This document shows positions 15,256-62,171 of a stretch of DNA of 64,000 nucleotides, in pieces. Location: NCBI GenBank assembly GCA_034189605.1, contig JAXHUO010000001.1, positions 63,606-127,605 of the forward strand, given 5' to 3'. Under the pieces are notes generated by a model. The model saw only the letters and a list, made by a program, of their open reading frames with translations, was not told the origin of the DNA and ran no database searches. The position numbers were made by a program, and so were the translations under genes. The DNA comes from Chloroflexota bacterium. Lineage in GTDB: Bacteria > Chloroflexota > Anaerolineae > B4-G1. Each line of letters starts with the position of its first letter. Position 1 is the stretch's first letter.

Positions 15256-15267
15256 GGGAGACAAACG

Positions 15268-16047
15268 ATGATAGGCCGTATCCAATACTATTTATCTTCA
15301 ATTCCTACTATTTTGGGGCAGGTTGAGAACTGGTACATGCTTCTTCCGATCTTGTTACGCAAGCAACCAGTAGTGATAGGATTGAGAAACGGATGTAAGT
15401 TCCAAGTGCGAAGCCTGATGGATGTGTGGATCGTTAAAGAGACATGTCTAGACCGCGATTATGAATCAAACAGTGTTCAGATCAAAGACGGTTGGACTGT
15501 GATTGACATAGGTGCAGGAATTGGCGAATTTGCGATACTGGTCGCCAAAGAGCACCCCAGCAGCCAAGTTTACGCTTATGAACCATTTCCAGAGTCATTT
15601 GTTCTATTTCAAGAGAATTTGAACTTGAACATGACGGAGAATATAAGAGCTTTTCAGATGGCAGTTGGCTCAAAATCAGGCAAGATGATGCTTGCTACAA
15701 CAGGAGAGGCAGTGCAACATACAACTACACATAGCACTGTATCAGGCAGCGCGACCTCTATGATTGAAGTTCAAGGGCTTTCACTTGATGATTTGTTCCA
15801 AATAAGTGGTATAGGGCATTGCGATTTTCTGAAAATTGACTGTGAAGGTTGTGAGTTTGAAATACTATTCAATGCAAGTCAGGTAACCTTAAGGAATATT
15901 GACCACATTTGTCTCGAGTATCACGATGGTGTTACGGAGTTTTCGCACCAGGACCTTGCTCAGTTCTTTGAAAAGAGAGGCTTTCAAGTGAGACTGACGC
16001 GCAATCCCGTTCATCGCCACTTGGGATTCTTGCACGCTTTCCACTGA
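15268..16047 (+). CDS. FkbM-family SAM-dependent methyltransferase
   Basis: VIDIGAGIGEFAILVAKE...VYAYEPFPESF...FLKIDCEGCEFEIL is characteristic of FkbM methyltransferases. Confidence 0.8.
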   Translation: MIGRIQYYLSSIPTILGQVENWYMLLPILLRKQPVVIGLRNGCKFQVRSLMDVWIVKETCLDRDYESNSVQIKDGWTVIDIGAGIGEFAILVAKEHPSSQVYAYEPFPESFVLFQENLNLNMTENIRAFQMAVGSKSGKMMLATTGEAVQHTTTHSTVSGSATSMIEVQGLSLDDLFQISGIGHCDFLKIDCEGCEFEILFNASQVTLRNIDHICLEYHDGVTEFSHQDLAQFFEKRGFQVRLTRNPVHRHLGFLHAFH

Positions 16048-23275: not shown

Positions 23276-23391
23276 TTTTAGAGTGATTCATCGCCTGCTG
23301 CTCCGTGGCCCAGCGGCTTTATCGCTGGGCGGTCGCGGCGCTCGTCGTGCCTTTCACGTTTTTCAGACATACTCTTGGAAGGGAGTTGTCT

Positions 23392-46777: not shown

Positions 46778-48622
46778 ATGTGTGGCATAGTAGGCTATGT
46801 GGGGCCGCGTCACGCGACCCCTATCATCCTTGAAGGTTTGAAACGTCTCGAGTACCGGGGCTATGACTCGGCTGGGCTGGCGGTTGTGCAGGCAGGCGGC
46901 ACCATCGGCGTGCGGCGCGAAGTCGGCAAACTGGCTGGCCTGGTGGAACTGGTGGCCGCCGACCCGGTGAGCGGACAGGTCGGTATAGGTCATACCCGCT
47001 GGGCCACCCATGGCGAGCCCAGCCGGCGCAACGCTCACCCCCACGTCGGCATCACCGGTCAGGTCGCCGTGGTCCATAACGGTATCATTGAGAACTTTGT
47101 GTCGCTGCGGCAGGAACTGGAGGCCGAGGGGCGCTGCTTCGCCTCGGAGACCGACACCGAGGTGGTGGTGCACCTGGTCGAGGGATACATGGCGGGCGGG
47201 GCTGACCTGGAGACGGCTGTGCGCCGGGCTCTGGCCCAGGTAAAAGGGGCCAGTGCCTTTGTTTTCCTCAACAGTCGCGAACCTGACCGGTTGGTGGCGG
47301 CCCGCCTCGGCAACGCTGGTGGCCTCACCATCGGGGTGGGGGAGGGAGAGATGTTTTTTGCCTCTGACATCCCGGCCATTCTGGAACACACCCGCGATAT
47401 GATTTTCCTTGAGGATCGGCAGTTGGCAGTGGTGACGCGGGATGGCGCGCGGGTGACCACGCTGGCCGGCGAACCAGTGACGATGGAGGTACACACTATC
47501 CCGTGGGACGCTGTGGCCGCAGCCAAGGGGCCGTACCGTCACTTTATGCAGAAGGAGATCTATGAGCAGGCCCGGTCCGTCACCGATACCATCCGGGGCC
47601 GGGCTGACTTTGACGCTGGGCGGGTGCGGCTGGAGCACCTGGAGTTGACGCCGGAGGACGCCCAGGCTCTGGAAAAGGTGATCATCGTCGCGTGCGGCAC
47701 CTCGGCTTATGCCGGGCTGGTGGGCAAGTTCATCATTGAGGCGCTGGCCCGTGTGCCGGTCGAAGTGGATTATGGTTCCGAGTTTCGCTACCGTGACCCC
47801 ATCATCAACGGCAATACCGCTGTGCTGGCCATCACTCAGAGCGGCGAGACTGTGGACACGCTGGCGGCGATGGAGGAAGCGCGGGCCAAAGGGGCGCGAC
47901 TGTGGACCGTTGTCAACGTCATTGGCAGCCAGGCGATGCGTGTCTCCGACGGTGCTATTCTGATGCACGCTGGCCCAGAGATCGGCGTGGCCTCGACCAA
48001 AGCGTTCACCGCCAGCCTGGTTGATCTCTATTTGCTGGGCATCTACCTGGGAGAGTTGCGCGGTACTCTGACTGGCGCGGGGTTGCGAGAGGCGGTGGAT
48101 CACCTGGCACGTCTGCCCGACCTGGTGGGGCGTGTGTTGGAGCACGGCAGCGAGTATGAGCAGTTAGCGAACCAGTTCTACGACCGGGAGCACTTTTTGT
48201 ACCTGGGGCGGGGCATCAACTACCCCATCGCCCTGGAGGGGGCGCTCAAACTGAAGGAGATTTCTTATATCCACGCCGAGGGTTACCCGGCCGGAGAGAT
48301 GAAGCACGGCCCCATCGCGCTGATTGACGAGGCGATGCCCGTCGTCACCATTGCCGTGCGCGATCACGTGTACGACAAGATGGTCAGCCAGATTGAACAG
48401 GTCAAAGCGCGGGGCGGCATTGTCATCGCGCTGGCGACGGAGGGGGATAGTGATATCGCCGCCAAGGCCGACTATGTGCTCTATGCCCCTGTGACCCCGC
48501 CGCTGCTCTCGCCGGTGATCAATGTCGTGCCTTTGCAACTGTTGGCCTATCATCTGGCAGTGCGGCGAGGCTGTGACGTGGATCAGCCCAGAAACCTGGC
48601 AAAGAGCGTCACCGTGGAATAA
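46778..48622 (+). CDS. glmS: glutamine--fructose-6-phosphate aminotransferase (isomerizing)
   Basis: MCGIVGYVG Ntn start, two SIS domains, and C-terminal DQPRNLAKSVTVE. Confidence 0.95.
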   Translation: MCGIVGYVGPRHATPIILEGLKRLEYRGYDSAGLAVVQAGGTIGVRREVGKLAGLVELVAADPVSGQVGIGHTRWATHGEPSRRNAHPHVGITGQVAVVHNGIIENFVSLRQELEAEGRCFASETDTEVVVHLVEGYMAGGADLETAVRRALAQVKGASAFVFLNSREPDRLVAARLGNAGGLTIGVGEGEMFFASDIPAILEHTRDMIFLEDRQLAVVTRDGARVTTLAGEPVTMEVHTIPWDAVAAAKGPYRHFMQKEIYEQARSVTDTIRGRADFDAGRVRLEHLELTPEDAQALEKVIIVACGTSAYAGLVGKFIIEALARVPVEVDYGSEFRYRDPIINGNTAVLAITQSGETVDTLAAMEEARAKGARLWTVVNVIGSQAMRVSDGAILMHAGPEIGVASTKAFTASLVDLYLLGIYLGELRGTLTGAGLREAVDHLARLPDLVGRVLEHGSEYEQLANQFYDREHFLYLGRGINYPIALEGALKLKEISYIHAEGYPAGEMKHGPIALIDEAMPVVTIAVRDHVYDKMVSQIEQVKARGGIVIALATEGDSDIAAKADYVLYAPVTPPLLSPVINVVPLQLLAYHLAVRRGCDVDQPRNLAKSVTVE

Positions 48623-48716: not shown

Positions 48717-50504
48717 ATGTGTGGAATTTTCGGCATTGTTGTGAAACAGGAACAGCCCCTGGGTGACATTCTGACCGAGTCCGGGCGGCGGCTTTCATAT
48801 CGGGGCTACGACTCGGTTGGCTGCGCCACGCTGCGCGACGACGGCACAATTGACCTGCGCAAGGACGTGGGGAAGGTGGACGAGGTGGCAGAGCGGCTGC
48901 GGTTCTCCGAGATGGCCGGCCGGCGGGGCATCGTGCAACTGCGTTGGGCCACCTTCGGAGCGCCTTCGCAGGTCAACGCCCAGCCTCATCTGGACTCTGA
49001 CGGTGATCTGGTAGGCGCGCACAATGGCAACGTTGTCAACAACGTCGAACTGCGCGAGCAGTTTGCCGCCGAGGGGATGACCGTGCGCTCAACCAACGAT
49101 GGCGAGTCATGCGTCCACGCCGTCGAGCGGTACGTTGATCAGGGCCATGGCATGGTCGAGGCCATCCGTCGGGCCTATGACGATCTGGAGGGCGATTACG
49201 CCTTTGTCATTGGGCGGCTTGGCGAAGGGGCCCTCTATGCCATCAAAAAAGGATCTGGACTGGTGGCCGGCCTGGGAGAGGGCTTTACCTGCTGCTCGTC
49301 CGATCTGCCCTCCGTCCTGCCACTGACCCGGCGTATCCTGCGCGTGCACGATGGCGAGATTGTCATCCTGCGCCCTGATGGAGTCGAGTTACGGCGTGTG
49401 TCCGACGGGGGCCTGGTCATGCGCGAGGTGGAGTTATGCACCGAGGATATGGACGTGGCCGAGAAAGGGGGTTACCCGCACTTTATGCTCAAAGAGATCC
49501 ACGAGCAGCCAGAGGTGGCGAGAGACCTGCTGCATCTGCTGGCGGCCTCCCCCCACGTGAGACCGATGGTCGAGGCACTGCGGCAGGCGCGCCATCTGTA
49601 CTTTGTGGGCTGCGGCACCAGTTACCATGCCTGCCTGCTGGGCGCGGTCTATGCTGCCCGGTTGGCAAGCCGCCCGGTTGTCCCTGTCCTGGCCCCCCAG
49701 TTCATCGCCCAGTATGGTCCTGCCCTGACTCCTGATGACGTGGCTCTCTTTGTCAGCCAGAGCGGCGAGACGAAGGATGTGCTCAACGCGCTGGAGGTGG
49801 CCGAGGCCCGTGGTGTAGTTCCTTTGGGACTGGTCAACGTGCTGGGCTCTGCGCTGATGCACCGCAGCCGCCACTACCTGCCCCTGGCCTGTGGTTATGA
49901 GATCAGCGTGCCAGCGACAAAGACCTTTGTCAACCAGGTGATAGCCTTCCTCTACCTGGCGCTGCGGATGGGCGAACAGTCCCCCACCGTGCTGGAACCT
50001 CTACCCGATCTCTTGCAGCAGGTACTTGAAATCGAGCCGCAGGTTGAGCGGGTGCTGCCCCTGCTGGAAGGCCAGGACGATCTCTACTGTCTGGGCTATG
50101 GTCTTACTTATGGCATCGCGCTGGAGGGAGCGCTGAAACTGAAGGAGATTACCTACGCTCACTGCGAGGGCATGTTATCTACCGAGTTCAAACATGGCCC
50201 GCTCTCGGCGGTGAGTGATGGATATCCGGTCCTCTTTGTCGTCGAGCCGGAGGACGTGGGGCTGCTGGTGAGCGCGATCAATGAGGTGACCTGTCGTGGA
50301 GGGCGGGCTATCGTCGTGGCGGAGGAGGACGCGCGTCTGCGCGCCAACGCACACGATTTGATCGTGCTGCCCCAATCCGGTTCCCTGCTGGCGCCCATCC
50401 TGGCGACGCTGCCGTTGCAACTGCTATCCTATCGTATGAGCATAGCGCGCGGCTATGACCCCGACTTTCCGCGCAACCTGAGCAAGACGCTGACGGTGGA
50501 TTGA
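48717..50504 (+). CDS. second GlmS-like glutamine amidotransferase/SIS-domain paralog
   Basis: MCGIFGIV Ntn start, HNGNVVN, two SIS domains (GCGTSYHA, SQSGETKD), and C-terminal DFPRNLSKTLTVD. Clearly diverged from the upstream copy. Confidence 0.85.
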   Translation: MCGIFGIVVKQEQPLGDILTESGRRLSYRGYDSVGCATLRDDGTIDLRKDVGKVDEVAERLRFSEMAGRRGIVQLRWATFGAPSQVNAQPHLDSDGDLVGAHNGNVVNNVELREQFAAEGMTVRSTNDGESCVHAVERYVDQGHGMVEAIRRAYDDLEGDYAFVIGRLGEGALYAIKKGSGLVAGLGEGFTCCSSDLPSVLPLTRRILRVHDGEIVILRPDGVELRRVSDGGLVMREVELCTEDMDVAEKGGYPHFMLKEIHEQPEVARDLLHLLAASPHVRPMVEALRQARHLYFVGCGTSYHACLLGAVYAARLASRPVVPVLAPQFIAQYGPALTPDDVALFVSQSGETKDVLNALEVAEARGVVPLGLVNVLGSALMHRSRHYLPLACGYEISVPATKTFVNQVIAFLYLALRMGEQSPTVLEPLPDLLQQVLEIEPQVERVLPLLEGQDDLYCLGYGLTYGIALEGALKLKEITYAHCEGMLSTEFKHGPLSAVSDGYPVLFVVEPEDVGLLVSAINEVTCRGGRAIVVAEEDARLRANAHDLIVLPQSGSLLAPILATLPLQLLSYRMSIARGYDPDFPRNLSKTLTVD

Positions 50505-50506
50505 AG

Positions 50507-51769
50507 ATGCGCGTTGTCATGGTTGGCCCCTTTGGGTTGCGGCCCCGGACCACGATGGCGGTGCGGGCGTTGCCGATGGCCCAGGCGTTGGCGGCGCGTG
50601 GTCATACCGTGATTCTACTTCTTCCTCCCTGGCAGAACCCAGAGGATGCTGGGCGCTGCTGGGATGAGGATGGTGTTGTAATTGAGAACATCTCCCTGCC
50701 GCTGCGCATCCCCGGTATCTTTCACCTGCTGACTGCTCTCCGGCTGGCCCGCCGGGCGCTGGCACTCTCCCCCGACGTGGTGCATCTCTTCAAGCCCAAA
50801 GCCTACAGCGGGCTGACCCACTGGCTGCTGGCCCGCCTCCCCCGTCGGTGTCGTCCCCGTCTCGTCGTGGACACCGATGACTGGGAAGGGGCTGGCGGCT
50901 GGAACGAAATCGGCGGCTACTCCCCAGCCCAGCGCCGCTTCTTCGCCTGGCAGGAACATTGGGGCCTGACTCACGCCAGCGCGGTCACCGTCGCCAGCCG
51001 CACGCTGGAGAGCCTGGTCTGGGCGCTGGGAGTGCCACGCGAACAAGTCTTCTACATCCCCAACGGTGTCCCGCCTTCCTCATCCTCCATTCTCCATTCT
51101 CCATCCTCCACTCTCCATTCTCCATCCTCCATTCTCCATTCTCCATTCTCCATTCTTCTGTACACCCGTTTTTTCGAGTTCCCAATCTCCCGCGTCATCG
51201 AGTTGCTGCACCGCGTGCGGGAGCGAGTGCCGGACGCACGGTTGTTCGTTGTAGGCAAAGGCCTCTTCGGCGAGGAGGAAGAACTATTCCGTCTGGCTGC
51301 TCAATCCGGCCTGATCATACAGCGAGATGTGTCCATCCCCTTGTCCCCTTGTCCCCCTGTCTCCTTGTCATCTCCCGAGGCATCTGCCGACGTACTCTAC
51401 GCGGGATGGGTTCCCTCCGACACACTCTCTACCTACTTTGCGCAAGCCGATGTTGCCATATACCCATTCGACGACACGCTCGTCAACCGGACCAAGTGTG
51501 CGGTCAAGTTGCGCGATCTACTGGCGGCCGGGGTGCCGGTCGTGGCCGAGGCGGTGGGGCAGAACACAGAGTACATTCGCCACGGCGAGACCGGCTGGCT
51601 GGTACCCCCCGGGGACGTGCCATCTTTCGCCGGGGCGGTGGTGCGGCTGCTGGAGGACACACACTTGCGGGAACGGCTGGGCCAGGCGGCCGCCCGTGAC
51701 TTGCGGGATAGATTTGCCTGGGACCGGCTGGTGGAGATGGTCGAACGGGCCTATGGGGTGGGGCGGTGA
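50507..51769 (+). CDS. GT4-family glycosyltransferase with two in-frame tandem-repeat insertions
   Basis: MRVVMVGPFGLRPRTTM...; C-terminal GT-B motif VKLRDLLAAGVPVVAEAVGQNTEYI..GETGWLV. The inter-domain linker is encoded by repeats at 51078-51156 and 51333-51372. Confidence 0.8.
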   Translation: MRVVMVGPFGLRPRTTMAVRALPMAQALAARGHTVILLLPPWQNPEDAGRCWDEDGVVIENISLPLRIPGIFHLLTALRLARRALALSPDVVHLFKPKAYSGLTHWLLARLPRRCRPRLVVDTDDWEGAGGWNEIGGYSPAQRRFFAWQEHWGLTHASAVTVASRTLESLVWALGVPREQVFYIPNGVPPSSSSILHSPSSTLHSPSSILHSPFSILLYTRFFEFPISRVIELLHRVRERVPDARLFVVGKGLFGEEEELFRLAAQSGLIIQRDVSIPLSPCPPVSLSSPEASADVLYAGWVPSDTLSTYFAQADVAIYPFDDTLVNRTKCAVKLRDLLAAGVPVVAEAVGQNTEYIRHGETGWLVPPGDVPSFAGAVVRLLEDTHLRERLGQAAARDLRDRFAWDRLVEMVERAYGVGR

Positions 51770-54078
51770 GGCTCGCTGGCTTGATGGTGATGCGCTCCCG
51801 TGCCCGGCCATCCCAACGCGATGCGGCCGCGCTCGGGTTCTACCCGTAGTATCTCCACCTCGATCACGCCACCTACCTTTAACCGCGTGCCCGTAGGCAT
51901 TTGACTGCGGTGCAGCAAGCCGTCGTGTTTGACCCCCACATCCACGAACGCGCCAAAGTCCACCACGTTCCGCACCGTGCCCTTCAGTAGCAGGCCTGGC
52001 TGCAGGTCGTCCATTGTCAGCACATCGCTGCGCAGGATAGGAACGGGCAAGTCTTTGCGCGGGTCACGACCAGGGCGAATCAACTGTTCGAGGATATCGG
52101 TCAGCGTGGGAACACCTGTGCCCAGTTCGGCGGCTAGCACACTCAAGGGTTGCCGGGCCTGCAATTCGGCCAGCCCGTCCTCCCGCTCGGCGGGCTCCGC
52201 CTGGGGGGTCAACCCGGCACGTTTCAGCACGGCTTCGGCGATGGGGTAACTCTCCGGGTGAATAGCGCTACCGTCCAGCGGGTTGTCGCCGCCGTGGACG
52301 CGCAGAAACCCCACTGCTTGCTCAAAGGTCTTTGATCCGATGCCGGGCACACTCCTGAGCGCCATCCGGTTGGGGAATGGCCCGTTTGCATCGCGGTGGG
52401 CCACGATGCGCGCCGCCAATTTGGGACCGATGCCGGCAACGTGCGTCAAGAGCGCCGGTGACGCGGTGTTCACGTCCACGCCCACGCTGTTCACCACGCT
52501 CTCCACCGCGCCGGCCAACGCTGCATTTAGTTGAGCCTGGTTTACGTCGTGCTGGTACAAACCAACGCCGATGGACTGTGGGTTTATCTTGACCAGTTCA
52601 GCCAGTGGATCTTGCACCCGCCGGGCGATGGAAACCGCACCGCGTATACTGACGTCCATGCCGGGCAATTCCGCGCGGGCCAGCGGACTGGCACTGTACA
52701 CGCTAGCCCCGGCCTCACTGACGATAATATACCGTAGGGGCAGGCCTTGTGCCTGCCCTTCGTATGCCTGCCCTTCGTATGCCTGCCCTTCGTATGCCTG
52801 CCCTTCGTATGCCTGCCCTTCGTATGCCTGCCCTTCGTATGCCTGCCCTTCGTGTGCCTGCCCCTCGTGTGCCTGCCCCAAAGCGTGGATCAGTTCGGCG
52901 ACGAGTTGCTCGGTCTCGCGTGAGGCTGTGCCATTGCCGATAGCGATCAGCGTGACGTGGTGCTGGGCGATGAGCACCGCGAGGGTGTGCAGGGTGGCAT
53001 CCCATTGTTTCTGTGGTTCGTGCGGGTAAATCGTGGCCGTGTCCAACACTTTGCCGGTGGGATCCACGACCGCAACTTTGCAGCCGGTGCGAAAGCCAGG
53101 GTCAATCCCCAGCACGGTGTGTCCGGCCAGTGGCGGCTGGTTGAGCAGGGCGCGCAGATTGGCCGCGAAGACGGAGATGGCGTGAGCCTCGGCTTGCTCG
53201 GTCAGGAAACGGCGCACATCGCGCTCAATCGCCGGGAGCAGGAGCCGTTGGGCACCGTCGTCCGCAGCCAACGCGAGTTGGCCTGCCAGGGGGGAGCGCC
53301 GGTCGGGGCGGAAGGTTGAACCGATAGCCGCCCGCCAGTCGCGCTCAGGAATGTCAACGTGCACCCGTAGCACCTTCTCGGCTTCACCGCGATTGATCGC
53401 CAGCACCTGGTGGGGGCGCAGCCGGTTGACCCGCCATTCGAAGTCGTAGTAGACTTGATAGACGCCGCGTGGATCTTTGCCCTTCTCGGCCTTTTCGGAG
53501 CGCAGCATACCCCACTGGAGCGCCTTTTCACGGGTGAGCCGCCGGACTTGGGGGTGATCGCTGATGGTCTCGGCGACGATGTCGCGCGCCCCGACCAGCG
53601 TTTCTTCCACGGTCGGCACGTCGGGTGTGAGGAAGGGCGCCGCGATTTGGGCCACGGTCTGCCTCGTGCGGGCCTGTTGCAGGATGAGATCGGCCAGCCC
53701 CTGCAGCCCCTTTTCCCGGGCGACGCTAGCGCGGGTACGACGTTTGGGCTTGTACGGCTGGTACAGGTCTTCCAGCGTTGTGCGCGTGTCAGCGGCCAGC
53801 AACTGCTGGTGCAGTTCGGGGGTCAGTTTGCCCTGCGCTTCGATAGAGGCGACGATAGTCTGTCGCCGTTTGTCCAGCGCCTGTAATCTGGCCAGCAACG
53901 TGCTCAGTTGGCGCAATTGTTCCTCGTCCAGCCCGCTGGTCATCTCCTTGCGGTAGCGGGCGATAAAGGGCAGAGTGTTGCCCGCGTCGAGCAGTTCGAT
54001 CGTGGCCGCCACCTGTGCGGGGCGCAGGTTCAGTTGGGTGCTTATGCGCTGGGTGTAGTTCATGTGCATCTGTCTCAT
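51751..54078 (-). CDS. tex: Tex-like transcription accessory protein (S1 domain) with an in-frame repeat insertion
   Basis: [10 protein letters not shown] near the N-terminus, YqgF/RuvC-like and HhH regions, and C-terminal S1 ([26 protein letters not shown]). Contains (EGQA[HY]) repeats. The 3' end overlaps the convergent GT4 by 19 bp. Confidence 0.9.
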
Positions 54079-54314: not shown

Positions 54315-55571
54315 CTATGCGGCTTTGAGCGGTTTCTGCAATTCCTCAACCAGACGGTCAAAGTTGTACTCGCCGAGGTACGGATCGGTAAGATTCAACG
54401 TATTCAGCATCCTTAACCCTGATCTCACCCGCTGATTAGGCCGTCCGTCATCACCGACCAGGTCTTTGTCAATGATCACTGGTAGCACGCGGGCCTGGCG
54501 TTCCTCAACCCCCAACGTCTGGGCTATCGTGTTCTGAAAGTGCGCCCAGTTGTCGGCCAGGTATGCCTTCGACAACACGACCACAGTGCGCCTGGATCGT
54601 TCTATGGCGCGCTCTATGCCCACGACCAGCGCCACGCCGGGGTCCTCGACAGCGCCAGAGACGGCAACGCGCAGGTCCGCATCTTTCAGGCGCTTTGCCA
54701 GTGTCCTCCACACCCATCCCGCGTCCGGCTCCCTGTGCACATAACTGACATAGGCATCGTAGCGGAAGCCTTCCTCATCTTTGGGCACGATTCCCTTCTG
54801 ACCGCCCAGGTAGAGGGCGACGGGAAAGTTCTCCTCCAGTTCGGCCTTGAAAATGGGGTGCTGGTTGGATTGATCGCCGGTGACGCGGGGCTGGAGGTAT
54901 TCGAAAAGGTCAAAGATGTGGATGAGACCGTCGTCGCTGGGGATGCCGCCCCGCAGGCCGGCCAGCAGGTGTTGGGTGAAGAGGCTGTTTGGAGCGCCGG
55001 GTAGCACCCAGGAGTACTCGCTGCTGCGGGACGAGGCCAGGATGACCCGTCCCCGCCCTTCCTTGAGCGCGTCGTAGTAACTGTCCGAGAAGCCCGCTTT
55101 GATGGCTGGCGCGGTCGTCTCCTTGGGCTGGCCGATGCCGCCGGAGTGGCAGCAGTCGAAGACGACCACGACCTTGCGGGCCGGGATACCGCGCAAGGCC
55201 TCGGTGAACTCGTTCCCTGAGATGGCGGTCTTGTTCACGCGGTTGGGAACTACATCTACGGGCAGCAGGTACTCGCCAGCGTAGGCGCCAGACTCCACCC
55301 GCCCGCCATGGCTGGAGATGTAGAGGAAGGCGGTAGATTCGGGATTCGTAGATTCGGCAATGGTTTTGAGGGCGGCGCGGATGCGGCCGGCGGTGGCTTG
55401 CTTATCGAGCAGCAGCTGCACGTTGTCCGGCGGGTAGCCGCAGTGCTGCGGGGCAACCAGCAGGTCGCGGATGTCCTGGGCATCCTTGAGCACGGTTGGC
55501 GGAAGTTTATTGATCTGCTGGTAGTTGGCGATGCCGATCACGAGGGCGTGGGCGTTTTCCATTGCAGGCAT
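54315..55571 (-). CDS. caspase-like (peptidase C14) domain fused to a C-terminal TIR domain
   Basis: HALVIGIANY, catalytic dyad contexts YISSHGG (His88) and VVVFDCCHSGG (Cys140/141). From aa ~270, YDAYVSYVHREPDAGWV...ERAIERSRRTVVVLSKAYLADNWAHFQ (TIR). AAGGAG RBS. Confidence 0.85.
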   Translation of the reverse strand: MPAMENAHALVIGIANYQQINKLPPTVLKDAQDIRDLLVAPQHCGYPPDNVQLLLDKQATAGRIRAALKTIAESTNPESTAFLYISSHGGRVESGAYAGEYLLPVDVVPNRVNKTAISGNEFTEALRGIPARKVVVVFDCCHSGGIGQPKETTAPAIKAGFSDSYYDALKEGRGRVILASSRSSEYSWVLPGAPNSLFTQHLLAGLRGGIPSDDGLIHIFDLFEYLQPRVTGDQSNQHPIFKAELEENFPVALYLGGQKGIVPKDEEGFRYDAYVSYVHREPDAGWVWRTLAKRLKDADLRVAVSGAVEDPGVALVVGIERAIERSRRTVVVLSKAYLADNWAHFQNTIAQTLGVEERQARVLPVIIDKDLVGDDGRPNQRVRSGLRMLNTLNLTDPYLGEYNFDRLVEELQKPLKAA

Positions 55572-55633
55572 GAGGCTGTCTCCTTTTCTCCTCGTTTACG
55601 TAGGGCATGCTGTCATATTGCAGAACTACTGCA

Positions 55634-56551
55634 TCAGCGTGGGCAACCATACCAGGATCGCAGAAAACGATGGAACCGACCACTCGTCCAACCCGAGCAG
55701 CGCGCTTGCCAACCACGGCCTGGTGGGCCAAGACCACCTTCAGTCAAGACCAACGAAATACGATACTCCCCAGCCTGAGCGCCAACCAGAAAAAGCGCAA
55801 AGGCCACCGGATGGCTGGGGTGACACAGCAGGGCCTCCTGGACGCTGCGGAAAAAGCCGGTCTTGGTGACGCTAAATGGGTAGCGTAGGCCCTCCTCGCT
55901 CCCACTCTCCAGCCAGAGAGTGGCCAAAGCACCGAGATCACTCTTCATTCCCAGCACCGATACCGGCTGGAGGTCCGGGCAACCATCTTGTGGGAAGATC
56001 GTCTCCAGGGATGTCACGTCTGTAATGGCTAGGGAGGTCAGGATACTCTCATCGCCGACGGCCACGAGTGCGTACTGCTTGGTTCCAATCTCCAGTCCCA
56101 AGAGCACCGGCGGCGGGACTGCATCTGGCAGGCTGTCGGCCAAGTCATCGGTGGTTTCAATGGGGTTGACGGGTGCTAGCGGGTAAACCACCCTCCGGCC
56201 GATGTAGCCCCCGCCTTCCAGCAGGTTCCAGACTTCTTCCTCTTCAGGATCGTACTCGTAGGTCGCTTCTATCACCACGCGGGATTGGGTCGCAGGCGCA
56301 GGCACGCATATCACCTGCCCAGCATAGATCACACTGGGATTCCAGATGCGCCCCCGGTTGAGCCGCATCATCTCCGGGACCGTTGTGTTGTAACGCCGGG
56401 CGAGGCTGTATAACGTGTCTCCACGCCGTACGGTGTAGGTGGCAGGACAGCCGCCCTGTGCACGAGCCGGGCCGGGGAAGGCCGCTAGTGCCCCCACTAG
56501 CGACAATGTTATCACCAGGCGGAGTGCTATTGCCGTCAAACGGGACCTCAT
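55634..56551 (-). CDS. secreted LysM-domain protein
   Basis: Signal peptide MRSRLTAIALRLVITLSLVGALAAFPGPARAQ. LysM YTVRRGDTLYSLARRYNTTVPEMMRLN...IYAGQVICVP. The remainder is unassigned. Start at ATG 56551 is preceded by GGAGG. Confidence 0.75.
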   Translation of the reverse strand: MRSRLTAIALRLVITLSLVGALAAFPGPARAQGGCPATYTVRRGDTLYSLARRYNTTVPEMMRLNRGRIWNPSVIYAGQVICVPAPATQSRVVIEATYEYDPEEEEVWNLLEGGGYIGRRVVYPLAPVNPIETTDDLADSLPDAVPPPVLLGLEIGTKQYALVAVGDESILTSLAITDVTSLETIFPQDGCPDLQPVSVLGMKSDLGALATLWLESGSEEGLRYPFSVTKTGFFRSVQEALLCHPSHPVAFALFLVGAQAGEYRISLVLTEGGLGPPGRGWQARCSGWTSGRFHRFLRSWYGCPR

Positions 56552-56591
56552 GTGACACCTCCTCATCTTGGATACCTGACAACTTGCAGGT

Positions 56592-59500
56592 CTACCCCAC
56601 CTTGCTCCACGTATTCCCGTCGTGGAACCACAACTCTCCGGTCGCCGTGCCTACCAGCAGTTTGCCGTCGGCAGGGAGCACTGCGGTAATGATAGGTGCT
56701 GTGGTTCCGCCGCCAATCGGCTCGTGGGTCCAAATCCAGTTTTGCCCTTGAGGCGTTCCTTTGAACAACCCTGCTGTTGTGCCCGCATAGAGGTCTGTCC
56801 CCCGCGTTTTCAATGCCAGGACTGCTCCTTCTACCTTCTGGCCAACATCTACCCGAGACCATCCCTCTGTCAAGGGCGCTCCCAGGCGCCGCCTCCAGAT
56901 GCCGTGAGCGAGGGTGCCCGCGCACACAAAACCCCCGTTCACCGCCACCGCTGTGCTCAATGGTTTGATCCCATCACCGCCGATGCCAGGCGTTTCGATC
57001 CATCGGTTGAAACCAGCAACGTTGATACCGCGGTAACGAGGGGTCATCATATTCGCGGCATATACATAACGATCCCCGTTCGTAACACCGGCTGCCAGGT
57101 CCAGCGCCACGCCCGCACTGCCTGCGAGCGGCTGTTCGGGGCCTGATGAGGCGACTGGCAATCCACCTGGAATGTTAGAAGGTGTCTCGGCAGAAAGCGT
57201 TTCGACCTCACCGCCCCATTGTTGCCAATTCCCGGTAGCAGGATCCCCAAGCCAAACCTTCCCCGCCGTTCCTACGTAGAGTTTACCTGCATCCATCACC
57301 ATAGACAACGGAGCCTCTTCCTCTGGCCAAGCACCCAGAGCCGACCAGGTGTTTGTATTGATTGGCCGCTGGTAAACGCCGCCTTCCGTGGCCGCGTAGA
57401 CCGTGTTACGTGCCGAGTCATAGACCAGAGCCACTACCCCCTCGTTCTCGCTCAAATTCCAGCCGTTAGTGCTTTCTGTCAGGCTGCCGGTGCCCGCTTG
57501 ATACAAGAAGCGTCTTACGCCGGCGTCGGTCCCGACGAGAAAGTTTTTCTGTCCGCCTGTATCTTGGAAGTGTACTAGGGCCTGGACGCCACGCTCGGCC
57601 AGGATGCTACGCTGAGCGAAGGTGTTGATTATTTGGTCAACAGTCCCTTCGGGCAGGTTGCTTTGGCGGGCTGCGGCGATCAGTCCCTCCGCTGCAGTCT
57701 CAAAGTTCGCTACCCAGCCGTGCACACATTCGAAAGCCTTCAACGCCAGCCGGTCGGCCGGGTCATACCCCAAGATCTCCCGAACATCCCACAGCGCCCT
57801 GGCCCACACCATGCTGACATTGTAGACCTCCGGGCCATTGGGGTCAGTCTGGTTGTGCGGGTACAGGTTGGGGGCCGGCAGAATGTCCTCGCCAGCGATT
57901 GCATCTGACCGGCTGAGTGCCCAGCGAGTCCCCCAATTGCTGTAGGCTGCCCGCGCCCAGCGCTCCTGCCCATCCGGATCCCCTTGTGCGCCCAAAGAGC
58001 GGGCGAAATAGTTCGCGTACCCTTCCAAGAGGGCCCGCCCAAAGGGCACGTTTTCATCCTGCAAGTGCTCAAAAGGTTTGGGGTTTAACTTCCACATGAG
58101 ACCGTGGGTGACTTCGTGATAGATCACTTCTGGATCCCAACTGGGGTTATCAACCGTCTTGTTTTCCCAGTCAGCGCTTAATTGCAAGCCCGCGCCGGTC
58201 TGAAAACGAATGAGTTTGGCCCCTAGCGTGGCGGGGTTAAAGCACATGCGAAAATCCGGCCCGGCTTCTACGCGCGCGGACAGGAAGGGTGTTTCCGTGC
58301 TGCCGAGGTAGGGAAGCAAAGCATCGGCGCCGCAGGTAGAGGCAAAGTGCTGGAGCAGCCTGTAGGCATGGAAAGCGATATTGGCAATTTCACGAGGGTA
58401 TTGCGTCACGTCTGTTGATCGCAGTTGCATGAGATGGCTAACTGTGGTGGTCAAATCCTGCAGATCCTGAAATGCGTTGCTGACCTTCTCGGTGTCGCTT
58501 CGCGCATCGCCCGAGGAATGATAGATATTCACACCGTAGAGGATTGAATTCTCCGGGTGTCCCAACACCTGCCCGCTCACAGCATCCACAAATATCCGCC
58601 AGGCCTGGTCGCCGGAGGGAGATAGGCACATCACCTGATAGGCTACGTAGTATTGACCGGCGAAAGGCAAGAGCCACGGCAGTTCTTCATCCTCGCTACC
58701 GGCGTGGGAGACCACGCGCACATCCCACGTCAGATCACCTCCCTGTGCAAACTCGAGCCAGTGCCCCCGCACCTCACCCAACAATTCAGCCTCACAGTGT
58801 ACATCCATTGCGAGCCACTCTTGCAGATCCGGGATGTCGAGGCCCTGCTGCTCACTGTACTCTGCGAGAGCAAGCAAGAATTCTCTTAGTACGCGGTCGC
58901 ACATCGCCTGTGTCGCCAATTCTGGGGCGGTCTCTGACGCGCGCGCTGCAACCAAATCCTCCAACCAACGCCAGTAAAAGCCCACTGTGTCGGAGGCGTC
59001 GAGGTAGGCCGCCAAAACCTGCTCGGCCATCAGTTTGGCCTGCTCTGCGCTTAACTGCCTGGAAAAGGTGGTGTCGGGCGGAGGGCCGGGGAAATAGGAG
59101 TTGGTCACAGAAACTTTTGGGCTCCCCACCTTCAGGTGAACAACCACGTCCCCACCAAAGACCGGCCACTCGGCACCATCAGCAGACTGATACCACTGTT
59201 GGTACCGCACGTGGGCTGTGGGCATCTCCTGGACACGGACCTTCTGAGAGTAGTGTTGGGTCCCAGTGGTACTCGTTTCAAACTGTAGGCGACCTTTGGA
59301 CTTGGTTCCTCCATGCACCTGGATGCTGTCATACCGCAGTGCCTGCTCATCCAGACGTTTGCCAAACAAGGCTTTCCGTTGCAGGTCTCCGAATAACCAA
59401 TGGGAAGCCATCTCTTTGTACGCTTCGGCATCATCGCGGGGCAAATCGGCCTCCCGATCTGACAGAAAACCGGTGAGAAAAGCGGGTAAGCCGGTGTGCC

Positions 59501-59894
59501 GCGCCACCCGCACGCGCAAAGGGTACTCGGGCGCTGCGAGGTGCGCTCTGTGCTCTTCACGGTATGCCTGGAGCGCATCTCGTGAGGTCTTTACGGTGTC
59601 TGCATCCCGGAAGGCGGTCAGAAGACCGGAGATGGTGGGAGGCGGGGGCAGAAGCACCCCCACGCGTTCCTTCGCCAACTGCGCCTGGCCTTCCTGACGA
59701 TCTTGGGGTGCGCCCAACAACGCTTCCAGCAGGCGCAATAAGATGCTCAGCCAGGAGCGGAGCAACTGCCATAAGGCTAGCAGGCAGCCTTGCAGGGCTT
59801 TCAGGGCAGCCGGGCTTAGGGGTGGCTGGGACGGTGCGTACTCAGGCATTGCCGTTTGTTCCACAGCCAATTGTGGATCAGGTTCCCTCAACAT
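56592..59894 (-). CDS. 1100-aa thermolysin/fungalysin-like (M4/M36 gluzincin) metalloprotease domain fused to a C-terminal beta-propeller
   Basis: VIYHEVTHGLMW (HExxH) with downstream ALLEGYANYF (third-ligand Glu context). An N-terminal propeptide-like region. The C-terminal ~400 aa carry repeated W/G-rich blades (GVYQRPINTNTWSALG, GKVWLGDPATGNWQQWG, GLFKGTPQGQNWIWT, ELWFHDGNTWSKVG). Strong AAGGAGG RBS. Confidence 0.7.
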   Translation of the reverse strand: MLREPDPQLAVEQTAMPEYAPSQPPLSPAALKALQGCLLALWQLLRSWLSILLRLLEALLGAPQDRQEGQAQLAKERVGVLLPPPPTISGLLTAFRDADTVKTSRDALQAYREEHRAHLAAPEYPLRVRVARHTGLPAFLTGFLSDREADLPRDDAEAYKEMASHWLFGDLQRKALFGKRLDEQALRYDSIQVHGGTKSKGRLQFETSTTGTQHYSQKVRVQEMPTAHVRYQQWYQSADGAEWPVFGGDVVVHLKVGSPKVSVTNSYFPGPPPDTTFSRQLSAEQAKLMAEQVLAAYLDASDTVGFYWRWLEDLVAARASETAPELATQAMCDRVLREFLLALAEYSEQQGLDIPDLQEWLAMDVHCEAELLGEVRGHWLEFAQGGDLTWDVRVVSHAGSEDEELPWLLPFAGQYYVAYQVMCLSPSGDQAWRIFVDAVSGQVLGHPENSILYGVNIYHSSGDARSDTEKVSNAFQDLQDLTTTVSHLMQLRSTDVTQYPREIANIAFHAYRLLQHFASTCGADALLPYLGSTETPFLSARVEAGPDFRMCFNPATLGAKLIRFQTGAGLQLSADWENKTVDNPSWDPEVIYHEVTHGLMWKLNPKPFEHLQDENVPFGRALLEGYANYFARSLGAQGDPDGQERWARAAYSNWGTRWALSRSDAIAGEDILPAPNLYPHNQTDPNGPEVYNVSMVWARALWDVREILGYDPADRLALKAFECVHGWVANFETAAEGLIAAARQSNLPEGTVDQIINTFAQRSILAERGVQALVHFQDTGGQKNFLVGTDAGVRRFLYQAGTGSLTESTNGWNLSENEGVVALVYDSARNTVYAATEGGVYQRPINTNTWSALGAWPEEEAPLSMVMDAGKLYVGTAGKVWLGDPATGNWQQWGGEVETLSAETPSNIPGGLPVASSGPEQPLAGSAGVALDLAAGVTNGDRYVYAANMMTPRYRGINVAGFNRWIETPGIGGDGIKPLSTAVAVNGGFVCAGTLAHGIWRRRLGAPLTEGWSRVDVGQKVEGAVLALKTRGTDLYAGTTAGLFKGTPQGQNWIWTHEPIGGGTTAPIITAVLPADGKLLVGTATGELWFHDGNTWSKVG

Positions 59895-59926
59895 GGCAAG
59901 CCTCCTTTCGTGTATCCTTCAGCGGA

Positions 59927-61582
59927 TCACGGCCACACACTGTGCCACCAGGGGCCTTTCTGCCGGCGTAACACCATGCCGCCCGTATTCCACCGGCCGG
60001 CCAACAGCAGGGGCGCGCCAGCCCCAGTGTCCGGTGTCAACGCGACGTCGCAGTCCAGTATGCAAGGCAAGAGAAAGGAAGACAGTTCCTCAGGCGGGGC
60101 GGTCCCCAGGATGGAGCCTTGCATTACCCTGCCGAAACGGGTCGCTATGTACCAGGAATCCCCATCCACGAGGAGAGCCCCCACCGTGTGCTGGGTTTGC
60201 CAGAGCGATTGCGGGCTTGAATTCGATGCGGTCAAATCCAGCCGCAAGACTTGGTTCCATTCCTCTTCAGGTCCTTTTCTCCAGTTGTGAACCAGGATGA
60301 ACAGATCGTCGGCAGCAGAGGCATAGGCCAGTTCCAGATACTCGTACCACTTGTTGACCTCAGCCGGTTGTTGCCAGCAGATTCCCTCGTCAGCGCTGAG
60401 GTAAAGTCCGCCGGGGGTATCTAATTCACTCAGGTCGTCCGGATTGCCGGTGCCCACAATAACGTGATCCGGCGTGACTGCCATCGCCCCTACCACCAGG
60501 TTACCGGTCAGGGGAGCACCTTTTTCGCAGACGACCTCATCGCTCTGCATATCCAGACGCTGCCACGTATCACCGCCATCCCCGGAGCGGAAGAGGCCTC
60601 CGGCTCGATGAGCCACGTACACCCGATCTATGTTCTCCGGGTTTGCAGCCACCGCGATCAAATCCGGCCTCGGCACTTCCAAATCGCCCGTGGGGTCCCA
60701 GGTGGTGCCCGCATCGTCGCTGCGCAAGAGACCTACGTCGCTGGTTGCCGCATAAACTCTTGACGTGTTGCCAGCAAAGCCCTGGATGTCGGCCACCCAG
60801 TATTCTTGCTCAGAATGCTCGAAGCATAGCGAGGAGTCGTTGCTCGATTGCCAGGTGTCGCCGTCATTCACGCTCCGCCACGGCCCCAGAGGTTTACATC
60901 CCTCCTCGACGTTAGCGCCCCCAACCAGCAAGACGTCTCCGACGTTCATCAACTGCGTGGCGTAGGGAGCGTCCAGCCCCAGGGAGACCCACACGTCGCG
61001 CAGTTGAAAGGGAGGTAATTGCAGAAGCATGGAGAGGGTCAGCCAGAGGAGAAAAAGCGCTCCTGCCCCCCGGCGCAGTTCCCGCCGGTAGCGCCGCCCC
61101 CACCGCTTCCACTGTGTGAAATCGCGGACACCGCCTTTTTTCCATGGAGCAGGCACGGGGATCACGTCCTCAATGTCCCGTGTCAGCCGCTTAATCTGCT
61201 TTTCCCAATGCCGTTCGACAGTCAGATCGGCTTTCTCCAGGGAGGCGATTAGATCGGGCAGTTCACACGGCTTTAGCAACACCGGCAACAGTTTGCGCTG
61301 GCGGGCTGCCGGGTCCGTTGTACGCAGCAGCAGGGCCTCAAAACCGTTCCACTCGCTGGCGAGCCAATCCGGCGTCAATATCACAACCGTGCGGCGACTG
61401 CTCTCCACCGCCCGCTCGATATTCTCGATCCTGGGCATGCCGATGGTAAAGTCCCGGTAGTCAACGGCCGCGCGCAGGCCGGCCTGCTCCAGGCGGGGTA
61501 ACAGCCACTCGTTCACCCATTCCCGGTCTGCCTGGCTGTAACTGATGAAAACGTCGTATAGGTAATCAGACTGCTCGGCCAT
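59927..61582 (-). CDS. N-terminal TIR domain, single TM helix, C-terminal BNR/Asp-box beta-propeller
   Basis: YDVFISYSQADREWV...SRRTVVILTPDWLASEWNGFE (TIR). A basic stretch RWGRRYRRELRR, then TM GAGALFLLWLTLSMLLQLPPF. Asp-box repeats NDGDTWQ, DDAGTTWD, GDGGDTWQ, ADEGICWQ. Start at ATG 61582 (GAGGAA upstream). Confidence 0.8.
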   Translation of the reverse strand: MAEQSDYLYDVFISYSQADREWVNEWLLPRLEQAGLRAAVDYRDFTIGMPRIENIERAVESSRRTVVILTPDWLASEWNGFEALLLRTTDPAARQRKLLPVLLKPCELPDLIASLEKADLTVERHWEKQIKRLTRDIEDVIPVPAPWKKGGVRDFTQWKRWGRRYRRELRRGAGALFLLWLTLSMLLQLPPFQLRDVWVSLGLDAPYATQLMNVGDVLLVGGANVEEGCKPLGPWRSVNDGDTWQSSNDSSLCFEHSEQEYWVADIQGFAGNTSRVYAATSDVGLLRSDDAGTTWDPTGDLEVPRPDLIAVAANPENIDRVYVAHRAGGLFRSGDGGDTWQRLDMQSDEVVCEKGAPLTGNLVVGAMAVTPDHVIVGTGNPDDLSELDTPGGLYLSADEGICWQQPAEVNKWYEYLELAYASAADDLFILVHNWRKGPEEEWNQVLRLDLTASNSSPQSLWQTQHTVGALLVDGDSWYIATRFGRVMQGSILGTAPPEELSSFLLPCILDCDVALTPDTGAGAPLLLAGRWNTGGMVLRRQKGPWWHSVWP

Positions 61583-61605
61583 GCGTGGGTTCCTCACGTG
61601 TTATC

Positions 61606-61634
61606 AGTATATCACTTTTGGCAGGGAATTTCAA
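61606..61634 (-). promoter_or_regulatory. sigma-70-like promoter TTGAAA-17-TATACT for the TIR operon
   Basis: The minus strand reads TTGAAA (61634-61629), a 17-nt spacer, then TATACT (61611-61606). It lies just downstream of MITE copy C and about 24 nt upstream of the ATG. Confidence 0.5.
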
Positions 61635-61645
61635 CTCCTTCATGC

Positions 61646-61797
61646 TGGTGGTTACCTACATGTCCGAAAGACCTCCGAGGTTTCACTCCCTGCAACAAAA
61701 CAGCCCGCATTTTGCCCTCGACACGCGGTGCTTTGACACATCACTTGTCCAAAACCTCGGATGTCTGAGGTGTCAGTGAACTCGTAGGTGATCACCA
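61646..61797 (-). mobile_element. MITE-like element, copy C (inverted relative to copy A)
   Basis: The reverse complement aligns with 5031-5180 over its full length with few mismatches. The termini are TGGTGATCAC / GTAACCACCA. Confidence 0.7.
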
Positions 61798-61889
61798 ACT
61801 TCATTGACCAGCGACCTCGACCGCCAACTCGCTGGCCCAGGCCAGGTCGGCGGGGTCGTCGTCTTTCTGGATCAGCGGTCAGGTAACAC

Positions 61890-62125
61890 CGTAGAGTGTA
61901 TCATGCCGGGCGCAGAAGTGCAACTGACGGGCTGTTTTATCCCGCCTGATCCACAAAACAATAGGGCTATGCTGGTATTTATCCACGGCTGGGCGGCAAC
62001 CGTGGGCCACTTTTGGACGAGACCATGATGCTGGCCCTGCATGGCTGTAGCGCATTGTTGCTTGATCTGCGACATCACGGCCAGAGCAGGGGAACTTTTG
62101 CCCCGCGTGTGCCGTCTTTATGGTA
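61890..62125 (+). pseudogene. frameshifted remnant of an alpha/beta-hydrolase N-terminus
   Basis: One frame gives RAMLVFIHGWAATVGHFW, then a stop. A second frame continues LALHGCSALLLDLRHHGQSRG (the HGxxxxxxxW...DxRGHGxS pattern of alpha/beta hydrolases), then a stop. No intact ORF. Confidence 0.35.
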
Positions 62126-62171
62126 GAGTAAGCCGTTTTCCGAGAGAACTCTACGTCGAAGGAGGAGTGTT

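Follow-up and report, generated by a model that had tools for sequence, protein, structure and literature searches.

A putative membrane TIR receptor triad of Chloroflexota and its exchangeable TIR partners

Could a bacterium carry a cue from outside the cell, through a membrane-bound TIR domain, to a caspase-like protease inside it? The question is raised by four adjacent genes, here called G1 to G4, in a 64,000-nucleotide stretch of DNA (the window, whose numbering is used throughout) from a Chloroflexota bacterium of the Anaerolineae lineage B4-G1 (GenBank assembly GCA_034189605.1, contig JAXHUO010000001.1, positions 63,606 to 127,605 of the forward strand). They encode a single-pass membrane protein with a TIR domain and a beta-propeller (G1), a zincin-propeller protein (G2), a LysM protein (G3), and a caspase fused to a second TIR domain (G4). 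Characterised bacterial TIR systems, such as the Thoeris types, cyclic oligonucleotide-based antiphage signalling systems (CBASS), prokaryotic Argonautes (pAgo), and antiviral STAND (Avs) effectors, sense inside the cell, and their TIR domains either make a signal or burn NAD+. An initial annotation, made from the sequence of the window alone, had likened the quartet to the receptor, adaptor, and death-protease layout of eukaryotic pathways. Our results revealed that the conserved unit is the G1-G2-G3 triad, nearly always accompanied by an exchangeable second TIR protein, and that the caspase-TIR represented by G4 also occurs, more commonly, beside an altogether different class of TIR-bearing sensors.

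A conserved triad and its TIR partners

Loci were collected by exact look-up and by a scan of the GTDB species genomes, and were then searched with a profile for each component. Some 60 full-length orthologues of G1 were recovered, all from Anaerolineae or Chloroflexota metagenome bins, and the 22 distinct loci that extend past G1 retain the order G1-G2-G3 wherever the contig reaches. These triad loci derive from Anaerolineae, Caldilineales (including Ca. Amarolinea aalborgensis), and one Acidobacteriota bin; their G1 proteins are as little as 31% identical to that of the window, and the genes flanking the triad vary from locus to locus. Because the order recurs in 22 independent loci, the gene set is more than a chance arrangement. 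In 19 of the 22, the triad has a further TIR gene as its neighbour, which encodes a caspase-TIR in 13 and another TIR protein in 6. The caspase-TIR may lie downstream on the same strand, convergently (locus L003), or upstream (L019 and L022). The remaining partners comprise a small standalone TIR upstream of the triad (L004 and L026), a TIR that ends in a helical tail and is encoded on the opposite strand (L016 and L025), a TIR-TIR protein (L020), and a coiled-coil-TIR together with a second TIR-transmembrane protein (L024). Thus, of the quartet initially annotated as one operon, the linkage of the genes stood, with the triad kept wherever the contig reaches, whereas the caspase-TIR was present in only 13 and on either side or strand; it is this variability of the fourth gene that makes the triad, and not the quartet, the conserved unit.

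Some of the triad loci have further features of their own. In L016, on the chromosome of Anaerolineae bacterium SSC4 (CP059258.1, a long-read assembly), G2 and G3 are split into many short frames between 11780 and 16745, owing either to homopolymer errors or to decay of this copy of the system. In the triad locus that has no second TIR gene (L001, 16131-19376; also L002), a partner-switching set of STAS, anti-sigma kinase, and GAF-SpoIIE genes follows G3 on the same strand.

Beyond the triad, the caspase-TIR alignment was used to scan metagenomes, which gave 80 loci, 50-82% identical to G4, of which 50 had informative flanks. A large gene with an N-terminal TIR lies within 1.5 kb of the caspase-TIR in 31 of these and farther off within the locus in 7; the triad accompanies it in 7, and nothing comparable does in 5. 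Seven of the large partners, which we term TIR-STAND genes after the signal transduction ATPases with numerous domains (STAND), were scanned with Pfam: six combined nSTAND1 with WD40 or FGE-sulfatase domains, and one had WD40 without an nSTAND1 match. The caspase-TIR and TIR-STAND genes together appear to form an undescribed system of two or more genes that is commoner than the triad. Because relatives of the caspase-TIR mostly adjoin TIR-nSTAND1-WD40/FGE genes, and others the triad, we regard it as a shared and putatively portable effector, pairing with cytoplasmic STAND sensors as well as with the membrane receptor G1. The TIR-STAND partners belong with the NOD-like receptor (NLR)-like sensors known from multicellular bacteria (Kaur et al.; PMC7159879, PMC8195603), and such sensors are diversified by diversity-generating retroelements (PMC10907252).

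The caspase-TIR usually adjoins one or two large TIR-STAND genes, as in L036, L045, L050-L054, L057, L060-L063, L070-L071, L074, L079, L085, L088, L100, L103, and L105.

Architecture of the operon and its four proteins

In the window, G1 to G4 all lie on the minus strand and read in one direction, with gaps of 32, 40 (25 with the longer G3 start), and 62 bp, and each of the four starts has a Shine-Dalgarno-like sequence. The open reading frames (ORFs) thus confirm the initial annotation on this point. The promoter it called good does exist as a sigma-70-like consensus match (TTGAAA-17-TATACT with an upstream TG, 10/12 matches; 61606..61634, minus strand), but is by itself weak evidence, because such sites are only about twice as frequent in the region as expected from shuffled sequence (5 found vs 2.6 +/- 1.7). 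Pfam searches supported each of the annotated domains (TIR, propeller, gluzincin, LysM, and caspase), the M36 match of G2 being weak and below its cut-off.

G1 (59927..61582, minus strand) encodes 551 aa. The longest ORF runs from 59927 to 61597 (556 aa) from a GTG; the ATG at 61582 is the likeliest start, with a GAGGA Shine-Dalgarno sequence and a 551-aa product identical to a database protein (P0001). The TIR domain occupies about residues 9-138 (nt 61169-61558), as judged by Pfam (TIR_2, 9.5e-26, residues 16-138) and by an AlphaFold2 (AF2) model; the sole hydrophobic segment, a transmembrane helix, spans residues 172-190 (nt 61013-61069); and a propeller of the seven-blade BNR/Asp-box type fills residues 195-543 (nt 59954-61000), on the evidence of Pfam (Sortilin-Vps10/BNR, 2.9e-8), AF2, and Foldseek. 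The AF2 model, built with 41 sequences, has a mean predicted local distance difference test (pLDDT) score of 90.4 and consists of the TIR (9-138), a long helix (155-187), and the propeller (195-543). The hydrophobic segment is preceded by the Arg/Lys-rich flank QWKRWGRRYRRELRR, which is kept as W.RWLRRYRR.LRR across the alignment of 41 orthologues, and in the same alignment three ectodomain cysteines (C229, C507, and C511) are nearly invariant, while the canonical Glu, E82, is at least 90% conserved. The predicted topology, with the TIR in the cytoplasm and the C-terminal propeller outside, is supported by the positive-inside rule, the conserved ectodomain cysteines, and the AF2 model (pLDDT 90), in agreement with the orientation first proposed from the window alone.

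The closest solved structures for the TIR domains of both G1 and G4 are those of animal Toll-like receptors (TLRs) and MyD88. Specifically, the G1 TIR matched Hydra TRR-2 (1e-15) by sequence, followed by TLR1/2/6/10/15 and MyD88, and the bacterial AbTir at 2e-5; by Foldseek, it superimposes on the human TLR1 TIR with a TM-score of 0.75 and a root-mean-square deviation of 2.5 A. Alignment of SEWCHYE in TLR1 with SEWNGFE in G1 places the canonical catalytic Glu at E82. PADLOC ThsB models matched the G1 TIR weakly (1.5e-4), and a SAVED_TIR match was confined to the TIR part (residues 8-83). For the propeller, Foldseek returned Ycf48 (TM-score 0.66-0.72), GH74 xyloglucanases, sortilin, and, as the top match, DAIP (5fzp, 6fhp), a Streptomyces propeller solved with a thermolysin fragment. 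By analogy with DAIP and thermolysin, binding of the G2 zincin by the propeller of G1 is conceivable; since Ycf48 and GH74 score as well as DAIP does, we keep this likeness as a lead and not as evidence of protease binding.

A second family combines a TIR, a transmembrane helix (at about residue 165), and an ectodomain of roughly 450 aa (P0078, P0079, P0092, P0093, and P0098); Pfam matched TPR_11 in two of these five proteins, and one member adjoins the triad in L024 (16765-18693). In these bacteria, membrane TIR "receptors" may thus form a broader class.

G2 (56592..59894, minus strand; 1100 aa) comprises an N-terminal alpha/beta region (residues 1-195), FTP-like (226-265) and PepSY-like (391-445) propeptide modules, an M4/M36-like zincin (about residues 540-760), and a C-terminal beta-propeller (770-1098, nt 56601-57587). 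Pfam matched PepSY, FTP, and, weakly, Peptidase_M36 (3.2e-4; 20.5 vs a cut-off of 23.3 bits) in the window protein; among eight orthologues, FTP and M36 were matched in six and PepSY in four. In 50 family members, taken from an exhaustive search of representative sequences, H593, E594, H597, and E624 are invariant, and the protein conforms to the M4/M36 gluzincin pattern, with an HExxH (HEVTH, nt 58104-58118) and a downstream Glu (E624) after FTP/PepSY modules. A single-sequence search of the PDB with G2 gave only noise, whereas the family profile matched the propeptide of thermolysin and the propellers that Bacteroides hybrid two-component sensors (HTCS) carry in the periplasm. An AF2 model (pLDDT 82.8, predicted TM-score 0.87) was closest, in its propeller, to the BT4673/BT4663 sensor propellers; in that Foldseek search the propeller matches swamped the list, leaving the zincin fold without structural confirmation. 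Profile-profile comparison showed homology between the propeller of G2 and the ectodomain of G1 (hhalign 98%, E 1.4e-13), where pairwise BLAST gave no significant match, and both propellers fall in a fold group with glycan and peptide sensors (Ycf48, GH74, DAIP, and Bacteroides HTCS). No signal peptide or transmembrane helix was found in any of 21 locus orthologues or 50 family representatives. In most loci the G2 ORF begins 4-50 nt past the G1 stop (up to about 160 nt), so a hidden upstream signal is absent.

G3 (55634..56551, minus strand; 305 aa) is predicted to be secreted or anchored. Its longest ORF extends from 55634 to 56566 (310 aa), and the ATG at 56551, preceded by GAGGAGG, is the better start. 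A hydrophobic N-terminal signal or anchor segment lies ahead of the LysM domain (nt 56300-56437; Pfam 3.9e-17), and after it comes a conserved C-terminal domain, about 210 aa long, with invariant Cys and the ending ...WYGC in an alignment of seven sequences. A profile search of solved structures matched the LysM part alone and gave no relative of the C-terminal domain.

G4 (54315..55571, minus strand; 418 aa) is a cytoplasmic protein with a C14 caspase domain (residues 8-249, nt 54825-55550; Pfam Peptidase_C14, 8.4e-22) and a C-terminal TIR (residues 273-378, nt 54438-54755; TIR_2, 4.4e-14). The caspase dyad is intact (His88 and Cys140/141, in SSHGG and DCCHSGG) and is conserved in 68-70 of 71 sequences of the family. 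The NCBIfam model caspase_w_EACC1 matched at 1.8e-33, below its cut-off, and the PADLOC "caspase" model matched the protease at 1.2e-19. At the canonical catalytic Glu position, the TIR of the window copy has Gln (Q346 in DNWAHFQ; CAG, nt 54534-54536), the sole Gln among 73 caspase-TIRs and one base from GAG.

A candidate mechanism, its rivals, and the genomic setting

We read the triad and its partner, tentatively and with slightly less than even confidence, as a conflict or programmed-cell-death module of filamentous Chloroflexota that would be built on a membrane TIR receptor and would recruit its partner through TIR-TIR contact. Together, G1, G2, and G3 most likely serve to sense a cue at the level of the envelope, for example a glycan, a fragment of the cell wall, or part of a phage. 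Clustering of G1 by its ligand would gather the G1 TIR domains, which could then seed a hetero-oligomer that takes in the TIR of the cytoplasmic protein encoded alongside, in this case G4; such an assembly would both create active TIR NADase sites and activate the caspase by proximity, and the resulting cell death or arrest would protect the filament. The domain identities, the predicted topology, the invariant catalytic residues, the linkage across 22 loci, and the pairing of the caspase-TIR with different TIR-bearing sensors rest on the sequences and models; the nature of the ligand, any touching of the TIR domains, what G2 does and where it does so, and a result in death or immunity are the parts of this proposal that we infer. 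A bolder form of it sees in the locus a "Toll-like" death-receptor pathway working from the outside in, the first in a prokaryote, with a LysM co-receptor, a zincin-propeller partner, and a direct TIR-TIR relay to a caspase; it seems to us less likely than not, though a realistic prospect. If true, TIR would be a homotypic recruitment domain in bacteria, and a single caspase-TIR serving both membrane receptors and TIR-STAND sensors would be a bacterial counterpart of the TLR/NLR division of labour.

The distribution of the canonical catalytic Glu bears on how the two TIR proteins would communicate. It is present in 24 of 25 G1-class receptor TIRs and in 72 of 73 caspase-TIRs in the MAFFT set (65 of 67 by hmmalign), the window copy being the exception in the MAFFT set, and in only 10 of 37 STAND-type partner TIRs, where Thr replaces it in 16 (FTQFTDLL) and Gly, Ser, Ala, Ile, or Val in the rest. 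Further, losses can be complementary: the window has Glu in G1 and Gln in G4, whereas L003 has Val in G1 and Glu in its caspase-TIR. The near-universal Glu of the receptors is what a Thoeris-like relay would call for, in which the G1 TIR cleaves NAD+ and the resulting nucleotide diffuses to G4 and switches on the caspase without any TIR-TIR contact. Such a relay has a precedent in type IV Thoeris, where N7-cADPR activates the caspase-like ThsE (Rousset et al., bioRxiv 10.1101/2024.10.24.620036; Yirmiya et al. 2025), and the PADLOC "caspase" model does match the G4 protease; that match, however, covers only positions 2-156 of a 453-position profile, and the G4 caspase is fused to a Glu-bearing TIR, with no known signal-binding module (SLOG, Macro, or the ThsE C-terminal domain). 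The receptor of L003 and 27 of the 37 sensor TIRs of the sister systems lack the canonical Glu. If sensor TIRs are often without it while the effector TIR keeps it, the sensor cannot generally work through a diffusible nucleotide. We consider the relay unlikely. Direct TIR-TIR assembly, with active sites contributed by the effector or by both proteins, is the simpler reading of these residues and the one favoured here.

The same conserved Glu would also suit a self-contained suicide receptor, in which the G1 TIR depletes NAD+ by itself (as in SARM1, TIR-STING, and TIR-SAVED) and the neighbouring TIR genes are independent conflict genes. That the partner differs in type, side, and strand, that the caspase-TIR is far commoner away from the triad, and that three loci have a triad without any second TIR gene all speak for this alternative; the L003 receptor without its Glu does not, and an adjacent TIR gene in 19 of 22 loci is far above the expectation for scattered TIR genes. 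Moreover, the caspase-TIR lies beside a TIR-bearing sensor in 45 of the 50 informative loci, which argues for a functional pairing, and we judge the independent suicide receptor to be improbable. An envelope-maintenance or developmental module, concerned with wall remodelling or filament signalling, would make of the TIR a scaffold or metabolic regulator and of G2 and G3 processors or binders of wall material. It would fit a chromosomal site among housekeeping genes, the LysM and glycan-sensor-like propellers, the synteny retained between related genomes (L006/L008), and the lack of any phage-family match beyond LysM. A TIR with a caspase is, however, a hallmark pairing of conflict and cell-death systems, the swapping between caspase-TIR and other TIR partners is the rapid modular turnover typical of such systems, and the same caspase-TIR serves NLR-like STAND sensors; a role in envelope upkeep or development strikes us as very unlikely.

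Several observations weigh against the conflict module with TIR-TIR recruitment that we prefer. Most STAND partner TIRs without the canonical Glu have Asp or Glu one residue downstream, which may be a register-shifted catalytic residue; a description of these domains as catalytically dead was softened for this reason. Given that 72 of 73 caspase-TIRs retain the catalytic Glu, their TIR probably works as an enzyme, not solely as an adaptor, although the receptor, adaptor, and death-protease layout first proposed does gain support from the second TIR gene in 19 of 22 loci and from the pairing of caspase-TIR with TIR-STAND sensors. G2 has no export signal in 50 relatives, though its domain families are normally extracytoplasmic, and an extracellular protease step by G2 is for that reason no more than putative. 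LysM, from which sensing of peptidoglycan or envelope damage had been suggested, is well matched in G3 of the window, but is missing from G3 in three loci; peptidoglycan sensing therefore cannot account for everything. The triad is also able to occur by itself, with no second TIR gene within the available flanks of L001, L009, and L011. Finally, the flanks of the operon are housekeeping genes (Tex, GlmS, and a glycosyltransferase) and no tight defence island, the Cas10, nSTAND1, and SIR2 genes of the window being 16-30 kb away.

Should the proposal hold, its bearing would reach beyond this locus. With a membrane TIR receptor paired to a TIR-fused caspase, sensing at the cell surface would be added to the biology of bacterial TIR domains, and the idea that TIR-TIR recruitment, long seen as the animal mode, was already present in multicellular bacteria would become testable. 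The pairing of the caspase-TIR with TIR-nSTAND1-WD40/FGE genes widens the range of systems on which the mechanism can be tested, and the whole bears on a prokaryotic origin of the receptor, adaptor, and caspase parts of animal innate immunity. In the literature searched, we found no description of the triad, of bacterial TIR-transmembrane-ectodomain receptors, or of the caspase-TIR/TIR-STAND pairing.

As for the surroundings of the operon, the divergent gene that starts at 62172 has MG2, MG3, and A2M_BRD domains, as expected of the alpha-2-macroglobulin-like neighbour noted at the outset; it is absent from every other locus and was rejected as a member of the system. The 575-bp divergent intergenic region (61598-62171) contains a 15-nt inverted repeat (61669-61683/61752-61766, 93% complementary) and several others, and no Rfam family was found in or around the operon, this region included. 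On the other side, the Tex gene (51751-54078, minus strand) has a 15-nt tandem repeat at 52750-52878 (8.6 copies, 98% matches) that adds about eight pentapeptides to its YqgF-like domain, and the glycosyltransferase gene (50501-51769, plus strand) has a 7/21-nt tandem repeat at 51081-51156 that encodes SILHSP(F/S) units between two glycosyltransferase domains. Two tandem GlmS-like genes (46778-48622 and 48717-50504, plus strand) are GATase plus 2x SIS paralogues. Among the distant plus-strand genes listed at 23305-26145, 34403-36511, and 36508-38367, the first listed is assigned to a Cas10/Csm1-like protein with an HD domain, the second encodes an nSTAND1 NTPase, and the third an AAA_35 + SIR2_2 protein. 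Farther off, the GC content falls to 0.46 in 14001-16000, against a window average of about 0.60; this segment, in which a Kelch-repeat gene ends and an FkbM-type methyltransferase gene lies, may have been inserted from a foreign source. A phage origin was considered and rejected, as PHROGs gave no phage-family match beyond LysM.

Comparison with known systems

That the locus matches no characterised bacterial TIR system, as initially claimed, stands insofar as PADLOC and NCBIfam returned matches at the level of single domains only; the claim had, however, passed over type IV Thoeris, which is the closest characterised system. In that system, a soluble TIR protein makes N7-cADPR, which activates a caspase-like protease via a non-TIR C-terminal domain (Rousset et al., bioRxiv 10.1101/2024.10.24.620036); 29 Thoeris types have been surveyed (Yirmiya et al. 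2025). Both pair a bacterial TIR protein with a C14/caspase-like protease (ThsB and ThsE in Thoeris), and they most likely share a logic in which TIR acts upstream, a protease is the executioner, and the cell dies. They differ in that the Thoeris TIR is soluble, whereas the G1 TIR is membrane-anchored with a propeller outside; in that the protease ends in a non-TIR sensor there and in a second TIR here; and in that a compact two-gene operon stands against four genes with a conserved core of three, of which G2 and G3 are obligatory.

Several features are shared with the effector-associated domain (EAD)-coupled systems. Kaur et al. 2020 described non-enzymatic adaptor domains with one copy on a core protein and one on a neighbouring effector (PMC7159879), and these systems count caspases among their effectors and are enriched in filamentous and multicellular bacteria (PMC7159879, PMC8195603). 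Here, too, the same domain, TIR, is found on the sensor G1 and on the adjacent effector G4, as it is on TIR-nSTAND1 proteins and their caspase-TIRs; among caspase models, the "EACC1-associated" one comes closest to the caspase of G4, and nSTAND1 NTPases occur in the sister loci. The EADs are, however, small and non-enzymatic, in contrast to a TIR whose NADase Glu is retained by 72 of 73 caspase-TIRs and by 24 of 25 receptors, and the EAD papers treat TIR as an enzymatic effector, not as an adaptor (PMC7159879, PMC8195603). Further, EAD-coupled systems have an NTPase core (STAND, MoxR-vWA, or GTPase), of which G1-G4 have none, and the locus described here has instead a transmembrane sensor with two fixed accessory proteins.

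Other comparisons are looser. The CBASS TIR effectors TIR-SAVED and TIR-STING differ in that neither Pfam nor PADLOC found a CD-NTase, SAVED, or STING domain in the window locus. The secreted M4/M36 (thermolysin/fungalysin) pre-pro-proteases share with G2 the FTP-PepSY-zincin order and the HExxH...E motif, but G2 has no signal peptide and has an extra N-terminal domain and a C-terminal propeller. Finally, the animal TLR-MyD88-caspase-8 pathway shares with the locus a single-pass receptor with a ligand-binding domain outside and a TIR inside, a TIR-bearing cytoplasmic partner, and a terminal caspase, and the TIR domains of G1 and G4 are themselves of the TLR type, to judge by their closest solved structures. 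The animal receptors are type I proteins with N-terminal leucine-rich repeats and a C-terminal TIR, whereas G1 has an N-terminal TIR (type II) and a BNR propeller; the bacterial locus has no Death domains, carries its caspase in direct fusion with the TIR, and keeps the NADase Glu. The likeness to animal TLR signalling is thus an analogy of layout combined with the homology of one domain, not an orthologous pathway.

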